From Promethearchaeati archaeon SRVP18_Atabeyarchaeia-1 (GTDB lineage Archaea; Asgardarchaeota; Atabeyarchaeia; Atabeyarchaeales; Atabeyarchaeaceae), in assembly GCA_037308085.1 (NCBI GenBank), contig CP147779.1:384001-448000 (forward strand): a stretch of DNA of 64,000 nucleotides, read 5' to 3'. The notes under the pieces are model-generated. The model was not told the origin of the DNA. It was given only the letters and a program-made list of their open reading frames with translations, and searched no databases. The position numbers were made by a program, and so were the translations under genes. Shown here one piece after another: positions 59,675 through 62,177 of the stretch (positions within the stretch are counted from its first letter, which is position 1; every line of letters starts with the position of its first letter).

Positions 59675-62177
59675 ATGGAGGAAAGTTTCAGACCAAGATT
59701 TGAAGAAAAGCATTGGGATCCCAAGATGGAAGAGAACATACTGGAAACTTGGAGAAAGGAGAAGACATACTCCTTCGATACAAGCGGTCGAAAGAAGCCT
59801 TTTTCCATCGACACTCCTCCACCCTATGCTAGTGGACCATGGCACCTTGGCGGGGCTGTCCACTACTCCCAGATCGACATGATAGCACGATGCAAAAGAA
59901 TGGAAGGGCACGAAGTTCTCTTTCCCATGGGCATCGATCGAAACGGATAAACCCTCTCACAACGAGCAGGGTCCCGGAATACCGATCGAAGTCCAAGCGG
60001 AAAAGGAATTTGGAGTCAAGATGAGAGAGACGCCACGAGGCAAATTCCTAGACTTCTGCCGTTCCCTGCTGGACAAGTATGAGGATGACATCCTGTCGAA
60101 CTCAAGAAGGCTAGGGCTAAGCTGCAATTCCTTGGAGCCTAGCGATGTATACAGAACTGATAGCCCCGAGTACCGCAGAATAACCCAGGCAACCTTCATC
60201 CAACTCTGGAAAAAGGGCCTTGTATACGAAGACAAGAGGCCCAACAACTACTGCACAGAATGTGGAACTACAATTGCTGACGCCGAGATCGAGTATAGAG
60301 AAATCCAAACTTCCTTGAGTTACATCAAATTCAGAATCAAGGGATCCGGCAAGGAAATAGTCATTGCAACAACCAGGCCGGAGCTCCTCTGCGCCTGTGG
60401 CTGCATACTCGTTCATCCAGACGATGAGAGGTACGCTGAACTCAGTGAGAGCATAGCTATGGTCCCAGCCTACGGCAGAGAAGTCCCAGTCATCCCCAAT
60501 CCTGCTGCACAGAGGGAATTCGGAACAGGGGCAGCAATGATATGCTCATACGGCGACTACACTGACGTTAGACTGTTCAGGGAGCTCAAGCTGACACCGG
60601 TTGAAGCCATAGACAACACCGGAAGAATGACTGCAGCTGCGGGCGACCTAAGGGGACTCAAAGTAGTAGAAGCACGCAAAACCATTATAGCAAAACTCAA
60701 GGAACAAGGCATCCTCGTGAAGCAGGAAAACACAGTTCACAGGACACCCGTCTGCTGGCGATCAAAGACACCAATCGAATTCATATCGATGTCAGAGCTC
60801 TACCTGAAACAACTCGACTTCATAGATAAGCTTAGAGAAACCGTAGACAACATGAAATTCTACCCGCCTGAAAGCAAGGAAATCCTCGTGAGCTGGATCA
60901 ACTCTGTCAGCGTCGACTGGCCAATAAGCAGACGCCGATTCTACGGCACAGAAGTGCCGCTATGGTACTGCCTCAAATGCGGCAAGCCCGTAACTCCACC
61001 ACCAGGGAAGTACTACCAGCCATGGAAGGATGCGTTCCCCGCCAGCCAGTGCCCACACTGCGCGGGAAAACAGGGATTCAGAGGCGAGGAAAGAACATTC
61101 GACACATGGTTCGACTCAGGCATAAGTGAACTCCAGATAATCCGCTACCTGAGAGACGACGACTTCTTCAAGAAAATGTTCCCATGCTCCATAAGACCTC
61201 AAGGGAAGGACATCGTCAGAACATGGTGCTACTACTCAATCCTGAGAACCTACCAGCTCCTAGGCAAAGCAGCCTTCGAGAGGGTCTGGATAAGCGGACA
61301 CGTCACGGACGACAAAGGAGAGAAAATGTCCAAATCCCGAGGGAACGTAACATGGCCAACCCCACTTCTGGAGAAGTACGGGGCTGATGCACTGAGACTG
61401 TGGGGCTGCCTCGAAGCAGGGCTAGGCAGCGACATAAGATACTCAGAAGCAAGGCTGGCAGGCGCACACAGTTTCATCACGAAGCTGTGGAACATATCAA
61501 AATTCATATCATCATTTCCAATCCCCAACGAGAAAGAATGCGAACTACTACCCGCCGACACTTGGATACTTGGCGCACTGAACCAGACGATAACCGAAAC
61601 CATCAAGGGCTACGACGAACTCGACTTCAACAAGCCGGCAACGAGAATGCGGACGTTCACATGGGACGCATTCGCCTCCCACTACCTAGAAATGGCAAAA
61701 GCCAGAGCCTACAACAAAGGCAAGCCCTTCCCCGAGAACCAGCAAAAGGGAGCGTGGCACACCCTCCACACCTGCCTCGAATCAATCCTAAGAATCCTAG
61801 CACCAATATGCCCCTTCATCACCGACGAAATTCACCGAAGAATATACACACCCAACAAGACCATACACACCCAAGCCTTTCCAAAACCAAGACCCGAAGC
61901 AAAGCCCCACGATGAAAGCCTCACACAACTAATCATAGCAGTGAACGGTGCGATCTGGAAGACCAAGAAGGACGCGAAGCTGTCACTGAACGCCGCAGTC
62001 AAGAGCCTACACCTACCACCAGAGCTAGAACCATTCAAGTCCGACCTGAAAACCATGCACAACGCCGAGAACCTAAACTTCAAGCCCCCCGACGACACCT
62101 CCACAGCGAAATACATATCAGCAAACATAGGCCAAGAAGCCCAGAAGAAAACAGTCTACATCCTGCTTCAAGGATAG
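59675..62177 (+). CDS. valS: Valine--tRNA ligase, two exons (59675-59948 and 59980-62177), 823 aa after splicing
   Basis: IDTPPPY, HLGG (HIGH-like), GIDRNG|LPIEV across the junction, ATTRPE, WPISRRR, KMSKS. Confidence 0.93.
59949..59979 (+). other. Putative 31-nt BHB-type mRNA intron in valS
   Basis: Creates the in-frame TAA and a frameshift; relaxed BHB geometry; excision gives GGA-TTA-CCG (G-L-P). Confidence 0.8.

Follow-up and report, generated by a model that had tools for sequence, protein, structure and literature searches.

A putative tRNA-type intron in the valyl-tRNA synthetase mRNA of an Atabeyarchaeia archaeon

The interrupted valS gene and its distribution

How can an archaeon make valyl-tRNA synthetase (ValRS) when its valS gene is broken by a stop codon and a change of frame? 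This question is raised by a stretch of 64,000 nucleotides (the window, to which all positions refer) on the forward strand of contig CP147779.1, positions 384,001 to 448,000, from Promethearchaeati archaeon SRVP18_Atabeyarchaeia-1, whose complete genome is a single contig of 2.81 Mb and whose nearest named relative is Candidatus Atabeyarchaeum deiterrae (Atabeyarchaeia-2, CP147780.1). The latter is an Asgard archaeon with wetland soil as its source. The valS ORF at positions 59675-59950 of the plus strand terminates as ...FPMGIDRNG-TAA, with the stop at 59948-59950, and the sequence restarts 31 nt after the break with PIEVQAEKE in a different frame, which, with ...PIEVQAEKEFGVKM..., is open to the stop at 62177. 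A first-pass annotation of the window had described this break and restart and had predicted that gene callers would fail here; ORFs and translation agree with all of its coordinates, and the public gene calls do split valS, into an ORF of 91 aa, annotated as "class I tRNA ligase family protein", and one of 718 aa. The N-terminal Rossmann part with its HLGG (HIGH-type) motif lies in the first piece, which matches the Pfam tRNA-synt_1 profile from position 2 to position 73, where the match stops; the second restarts at position 73, extends to position 413 and also contains Anticodon_1.

Two separate gene calls are what a pseudogene, a split gene with assembling products or an assembly error would give, but we consider it very unlikely that any of the three accounts for valS. 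There is one copy of the gene in the complete 2.81-Mb genome, all remaining search matches being Ile, Leu and Met enzymes, so that there is no second intact valS, which, combined with only unspliced transcripts, the first-pass annotation had named as evidence against the intron. In both exons dN/dS is at most 0.15 (0.04-0.14 where computable, and 0.06-0.14 for exon 1), with dN between carriers of the insert ranging from 0.04 to 0.21 and dS being saturated. Judged by these substitution rates, valS is functional and both exons are under strong purifying selection. As for a split gene, the exon-2 frame contains no start codon before position 60021, and the 14 conserved codons (LPIEVQAEKEFGVK) that lie between the insert and this first possible start change only synonymously or conservatively, which argues against an independently translated second protein. 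Regarding misassembly, for which a check against reads had been proposed, Logan contigs from three DNA runs contain the 31 nt, with no difference even in the run from a separate sample; the insert is therefore not an assembly error, and independent assemblies as well as 16 divergent sequences contain it.

These sequences were collected by a protein search with the 91-aa exon-1 peptide as the query, which returned about 20 clusters with ORFs of 91-98 aa ending in GIDRNG or GIDRNGQ..., followed by retrieval of the DNA of the matches. The insert interrupts valS at the same codon in all 16 distinct Atabeyarchaeia sequences thus obtained from genomes and metagenomes, among them same-genus and same-family genomes, and all intron-bearing copies are located 3' of the same release-factor gene. 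On the other hand, the alignment of relatives that had been suggested earlier showed no insert at about 190 other archaeal valS loci; 35 genomes from other Asgard families and some 150 more loci of archaea read G[ILV]DRNGLP[IV]E uninterrupted. No uninterrupted close relative was found among 5.8 billion proteins, as none of at least 161 aa had more than 70% identity to exon 1. On this comparative evidence, the insert is a real, old and clade-wide intron that almost certainly must be removed exactly for ValRS to be made. The age of the introns follows from the saturation of synonymous sites between carriers.

The mature junction and the split leucine codon

Removal of positions 59949-59979 (plus strand), a 31-nt hairpin with conserved ends whose counterparts in the relatives are 29-31 nt long, would join exon 1 (59675-59948; 90 codons plus T, the first base of a split Leu codon) to exon 2 (59980-62177; the last two bases of that codon, then PIEVQAEKE... 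to the stop), and would eliminate the in-frame TAA at 59948-59950, which ends the unspliced frame and spans the 5' splice site. The junction then reads GGA TTA CCG, i.e., G-L-P, in the context ...AACGGAT|TACCGATC..., and the spliced CDS of 2472 nt would encode an 823-aa ValRS containing ...GIDRNGLPIEVQ..., with no gap relative to either the intron-less homologues or the Pfam profile. This junction had been proposed in the first-pass annotation for the present genome, and it holds for all homologues: the base after GGA together with the two bases before CCG specifies Leu in 16 of 16 sequences (TTA in 6, TTG in 4, CTA in 3, CTG in 2 and CTC in 1), so a cut after the second base of each bulge described below would yield a functional mature RNA in every carrier. 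The first base of the codon is only ever T or C, and the third is C only if the first is C. In other words, the three bases, which the DNA separates by 29-31 nt, behave in evolution as a single Leu codon, with synonymous variation only. Moreover, twelve carriers have an insert of 31 nt, three have one of 30 nt and a single carrier has one of 29 nt, and all three relative frames of exon 2 to exon 1 occur among them. Since Leu is retained in 16 of 16 sequences despite these different lengths, the mature valS junction 59948|59980 is established by sequence evolution. The combination of a varying insert length and a split codon that changes only synonymously provides an unusually clean proof of a junction from sequence only, and can be reused for other candidates.

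The same data bear on two explanations in which the ribosome, rather than an endonuclease, deals with the insert. The first is a bypass of the phage T4 gene 60 type, with take-off at GGA 59945-59947, a skip of 28 nt and landing at GGA 59976-59978, giving NG-I-PIEV. The likeness to gene 60 consists of GGA codons on the two sides of a gap containing a hairpin, the first GGA being followed by a stop in this genome; the GGA codons match in 15 of the 16 sequences, and a stop follows the take-off codon in nine. However, in the remaining seven carriers this codon is CAA instead of TAA, so a stop is not required; the landing codon of one sequence is GGG; and the residue decoded on landing would be I in five sequences, M in three, L in seven and F in one, yet this position is Leu in every Asgard relative. 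The stop or slow codon, matching landing codon and conserved product of a gene 60-type bypass are thus not found together in the carriers. In addition, the other mRNA inserts of this genome (see below) have strict BHB motifs and no matching codons, none being found for take-off and landing in ahcY, gatE or pcm. The resemblance to gene 60 arises because the CCGG helix is near-palindromic. To our knowledge, translational bypass has not been described in archaea, and we regard it as a highly improbable explanation of valS.

The second is a programmed +1 ribosomal frameshift at GGA-TAA-A, in which case the insert would be translated and the protein lengthened by about 11 residues. It has in its favor that the insert contains no stop in the +1 frame of this genome, but that frame has an in-frame TAG in the genome from the same genus, inserts of 29, 30 and 31 nt would need three different shifts, and the peptides encoded by the insert are not conserved, whereas the RNA pairing is. 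As neither an open shifted frame nor a fixed frame relation is found across the carriers, the chance that such a frameshift operates on valS is close to nil, and as a general mechanism it is refuted by the TAG and by the varying insert lengths.

RNA structure around the junction and its competing register

The 74 nt around the valS break fold with an energy of -29.4 kcal/mol (z = -4.29), and none of 200 shuffled sequences was as stable. The helices, bulges and inner stem that the first-pass annotation had drawn on the plus strand were confirmed in every coordinate. The outer exon-exon helix of 12 bp has its 5' strand at 59928-59940 (pairing bases 59928-59932 and 59934-59940), in which 99.5% of the cells are paired among the 16 sequences, and its 3' strand at 59983-59995 (59983-59989 and 59991-59995), identified by pairing and by frozen synonymous sites. 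It is followed by the central helix H, in which the exon strand ACGG (59943-59946) pairs with the intron strand CCGG (59974-59977), the C-G, G-C and G-C pairs being formed in 15-16 of the 16 sequences and the A.G mismatch 59943/59977 being present in 16 of 16. The 5' bulge ATA (59947-59949) and the 3' bulge AAT (59978-59980), the latter within a larger 3x6 internal loop, would be cut after their second bases, at 59948|59949 and 59979|59980; the former position derives from the codon evidence given above. Finally, the intron stem-loop h' occupies 59950-59973, where the fold pairs 59951-59958 with 59964-59972 in this genome.

This structure is maintained by compensatory change. Two pairs in the intron stem have changed on both sides, in 6 cells: 59951/59972 is G-C in 13 sequences and A-U in 3, and 59952/59971 is C-G in 11, U-A in 2 and A-U in 1. 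In none of 500 shuffles was either the observed covariation score or the observed percentage of paired cells matched, and slid controls paired in 22-50% versus the 92.8% observed; the stem covariation for which the annotation had proposed to look is therefore present. Elsewhere inside the intron the sequence is scrambled (32-59% identity). On the exon side, 8 of 15 codons around the junction are invariant versus 61 of 362 in the whole gene (Fisher p = 0.001), so the exon bases forming the helices are, by this measure, constrained at synonymous sites.

To place the cuts, we used a rule calibrated on the tRNA-Arg introns of the same genome, namely, that the helix has 4 bp and each bulge is cut after its second base, and the same rule has been stated for cbf5 (PMC2738675). 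The 31-nt register of valS is not a strict bulge-helix-bulge, as it has three central pairs plus A.G in 16 of 16 sequences, its outer helix begins only beyond two further mismatches, and its 3' cut falls within the 3x6 internal loop. It does conform to the relaxed HBh' motif accepted by (αβ)2 EndA, the 3-nt 5' bulge being followed by A-U (13 of 16), G-C/A-U, C-G/U-A and C-G/U.G pairs. Since relaxed HBh' motifs are frequent by chance, the motif alone is weak evidence, and it is the comparative data that carry the case.

There is also a competing 29-nt register, in which the helix is CGGA/UCCG, the bulges are UAA and GAA, and the outer side is closed by an A-U pair. This register looks strict, and it has 97.3% of its cells paired versus 90.7% for the 31-nt register; cutting in it would keep the stop in this genome. 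The minimum free energy fold adopts it at the 5' side in most sequences, mixing both registers, and the fold energies of the two, being 1-2.3 kcal/mol apart, are no basis for choosing between them. The better pairing of the 29-nt register had been underplayed in the first-pass annotation. Accordingly, one may suppose that EndA cuts mainly in this register, so that most transcripts are non-productive, the 31-nt product is minor or regulated, and the intron serves as a brake or switch on the ValRS level. The better pairing, the small energy difference and the invariance of the bases permitting the register, i.e., A 59947, which is a synonymous site, and the A-U pair 59943/59980, would all suit this idea. 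However, these bases are largely fixed by coding (AAC, GGA and the second base of Leu), the invariant intron base G 59977 fits the 31-nt helix, a role opposite A 59943 being a better fit to its conservation than that of a free bulge base, and there is no evidence of regulation. A brake of this kind thus seems unlikely, though less so than the ribosomal explanations discussed above.

Splicing machinery, related introns and known systems

The host encodes the presumed splicing enzymes. Its genome has genes for two EndA subunits of 209 aa and 241 aa, each with an N-terminal and a catalytic domain, the two genes lying near genome positions 202,6xx and 624,2xx, and it contains a gene for RtcB, thus providing both a splicing endonuclease and an RNA ligase. 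Asgard EndA has been reported to be of the (αβ)2 type with the broad-specificity L1 loop (PMC5829648), and introns are found in 92-95% of the tRNA genes of these genomes (PMC11291895). In the mechanism that we propose, the 12-bp pairing between the exons would place the short central helix, formed by exon ACGG and intron CCGG, beside the intron hairpin; the two-subunit EndA would cut after 59948 and after 59979; and RtcB would ligate the exons, creating the TTA (Leu) codon and the message for the 823-aa ValRS, whereas unspliced valS mRNA could give rise to the 91-aa fragment only. The only matching RNA run, a metatranscriptome, yielded a single contig, which covers 59445-59640 and not the junction. 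Taking together the 16 homologues, the Leu junction, the covariation, the purifying selection, the single gene copy and the two EndA subunits and RtcB encoded by the genome, the insert is very probably a short archaeal tRNA-type intron of the bulge-helix-bulge class in the valS pre-mRNA, spliced at the RNA level by EndA and RtcB; a tRNA-type intron with this junction was the reading of the first-pass annotation.

An intron in the cbf5 pre-mRNA of Crenarchaeota was reportedly described by Watanabe in 2002, and non-canonical archaeal tRNA introns are said to have been treated by Marck and Grosjean in 2003. Confirmed archaeal mRNA splicing has so far been that of cbf5 in some Crenarchaeota (PMC2738675), in agreement with the earlier statement that mRNA introns spliced by EndA are rare in archaea and that cbf5 is the classic case. 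The cbf5 intron of Desulfurococcales and Sulfolobales (Yokobori 2009, PMC2738675) and the valS intron are alike in that both are short, interrupt a protein-coding gene with an unconventional or relaxed BHB motif, are predicted to be cut between bases two and three of the bulge, split a codon after its first base, occur in hosts with a hetero-oligomeric EndA and are mis-annotated by gene callers. They differ in that valS is another gene in another phylum (Asgard, Atabeyarchaeia) and is one of several interrupted protein genes, and in that splicing has been confirmed experimentally for cbf5 and is predicted for valS. With the non-canonical tRNA introns of Asgard archaea and Thermoproteales (PMC11291895; 10.64898/2026.10.13.758758) the valS intron shares a hairpin of about 15-50 nt, a motif that is half exon and half intron, the common occurrence of relaxed motifs and the same presumed enzymes. 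However, its host is an mRNA, the exon half of its motif consists of codons, and its splicing has to be base-exact to keep the frame. The papers describing these genomes (including PMC11291895) and the 2026 preprint on Asgard tRNA introns (10.64898/2026.10.13.758758) do not mention mRNA introns, and our literature search on Asgard archaea with bulge-helix-bulge or pre-mRNA found no report of mRNA introns, that of valS included. The valS intron is thus an addition to a known but very sparsely populated kind.

It also belongs to a larger group of introns in the mRNAs of this genome. We verified such introns in ahcY (34 nt), gatE (41 nt), rpl39e (49 nt) and pcm (28 nt), all of which have a perfect central helix of 4 bp and clean bulges of 3 nt; those of ahcY, gatE and rpl39e are strict BHB motifs with 10 of 10 pairs, and that of pcm is near-strict with 9 of 10. 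They resemble the valS intron in occurring in the same genome, in their size range (28-49 nt) and in the cut rule, which, applied as in valS, restores the conserved motifs GHPS-E-VMD, CLLEA-DEEPP, VPTW-IVVKT and TISAP-HMV in ahcY, gatE, rpl39e and pcm, respectively; for ahcY and for pcm, the Pfam profile positions matched by the two halves adjoin each other. In contrast to them, valS has the invariant A.G mismatch, a loose outer side and the competing register. The first-pass annotation had suggested that the intron might couple ValRS production to splicing capacity, but this idea is speculative and unsupported, and it is less likely than a general spread of introns, because the unrelated ahcY, pcm, gatE and rpl39e carry introns of the same kind. 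Whether EndA and RtcB have become routine in the expression of protein genes in Atabeyarchaeia, including the essential translation genes valS, rpl39e and gatE and, among metabolic genes, ahcY, pcm and probably also glyA and a RuBisCO-like gene, is in our judgment an evenly balanced question. If they have, cells without a nucleus would need some way to stop ribosomes from being wasted on unspliced mRNAs, and the competing non-productive register of valS could additionally tune the synthetase level.

Asgard archaea are the archaeal lineage closest to eukaryotes, and in one of them mRNA splicing appears to be needed for an aminoacyl-tRNA synthetase and for several further genes. This makes it possible to test how introns in mRNAs are handled under coupled transcription and translation, how EndA can be loose in reading its motif and base-exact in cutting, and how such introns may spread from tRNA genes to mRNAs. 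Furthermore, the split annotation makes the essential ValRS look broken or truncated, to the detriment of inferences on genome quality and metabolism.

A genome-wide de novo scan for frame-rejoining BHB motifs returned 9207 and then 13926 candidates, and 79 after tightening; as these were mostly junctions of neighbouring genes, the candidates named above were instead verified individually. An endoQ candidate was not recovered by the scan. The tRNA-Ile 14/15 intron to which the first-pass annotation had ascribed the same relaxed central helix was not located: a T-loop pattern search found no tRNA, and ARAGORN together with Rfam identified tRNA-Ser only in the 64-kb window. The cbf5 gene of this genome is itself uninterrupted.

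Further introns in protein-coding genes

Four genes of this genome besides valS carry interruptions on the forward strand with a bulge-helix-bulge (BHB) structure, and removal of each restores an interrupted reading. In ahcY (genome 488226-488259; positions 1327-1360 of the fetched locus L200), a strict BHB with helix CCAG/CTGG and bulges TGT and ACA delimits a 34-nt intron, excision of which regains GHPS-E-VMDMSF, and the halves on either side match adjoining positions of the Pfam AdoHcyase profile. The 28-nt intron in pcm (genome 305604-305631; L201:505-532) has the BHB helix CGCC/GGCG and bulges ACA and AGA; its removal regains GQTISAP-HMV, with the first half ending at position 59 of the PCMT profile and the second beginning at 61. 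Strict BHB motifs were also found in gatE, where a 41-nt intron with a 9-bp stem lies outside the window (genome 2219068-2219108; helix AGGC/GCCT, bulges AGA and AGA) and its excision regains TCLLEA-DEEPPH, and in rpl39e, where removal of 49 nt (genome 242875-242923; L202:276-324; helix GTGG/CCAT, bulges ATT and TGA) regains ...NRSVPTW-IVVKTNRKVRTHP.

Further introns appear to be present in two genes of this genome recovered by a targeted scan, namely, a RuBisCO-like gene (28 nt, genome 2712459-2712486, reverse strand; junction GSGGG-IHAHPDG) and glyA (38 nt, genome about 654015-654052, forward strand; junction YAEGWPGE-RVYAGC), both candidates having relaxed outer helices.

Intron phase and comparison with cbf5

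Of the six introns with a determined phase, five (those of valS, ahcY, gatE, pcm and the RuBisCO-like gene) lie between the first and second bases of a codon, a phase shared with the intron in crenarchaeal cbf5; the rpl39e intron lies between the second and third. A tally of six is too small to judge. Unlike in those Crenarchaeota that provided the classic mRNA intron, cbf5 of this genome, identified by its TruB_N domain, is uninterrupted (genome 383841-384134, window 1-134; L204 and L205).

The valS site and its neighbours

The exon sequences forming the valS outer helix, ATCGATCGAA (window 59933-59942, coding for IDR) and CCGATCGAAG (59982-59991, coding for PIE), are near-identical direct repeats with the palindromic core CGATCG. 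Since relatives without the intron have similar codons at these sites, a helix may predate the intron's arrival.

The counterpart of the 417-aa ORF upstream of valS (window 58373-59626) is, in every fetched relative, a release-factor (eRF1-domain) gene; thus, the eRF1-valS order is conserved. The sole RNA contig found (window 59445-59640) sits at its 3' end. Directly 3' of valS, window 62222-62700 opens with an apparent tRNA 5' end (GGGTCCGTAGCTCAAGG...), followed by a long stretch recognized by neither ARAGORN nor Rfam. This is presumably a heavily interrupted tRNA gene, and may be the same gene as the tRNA-Ile cited in the first-pass annotation.
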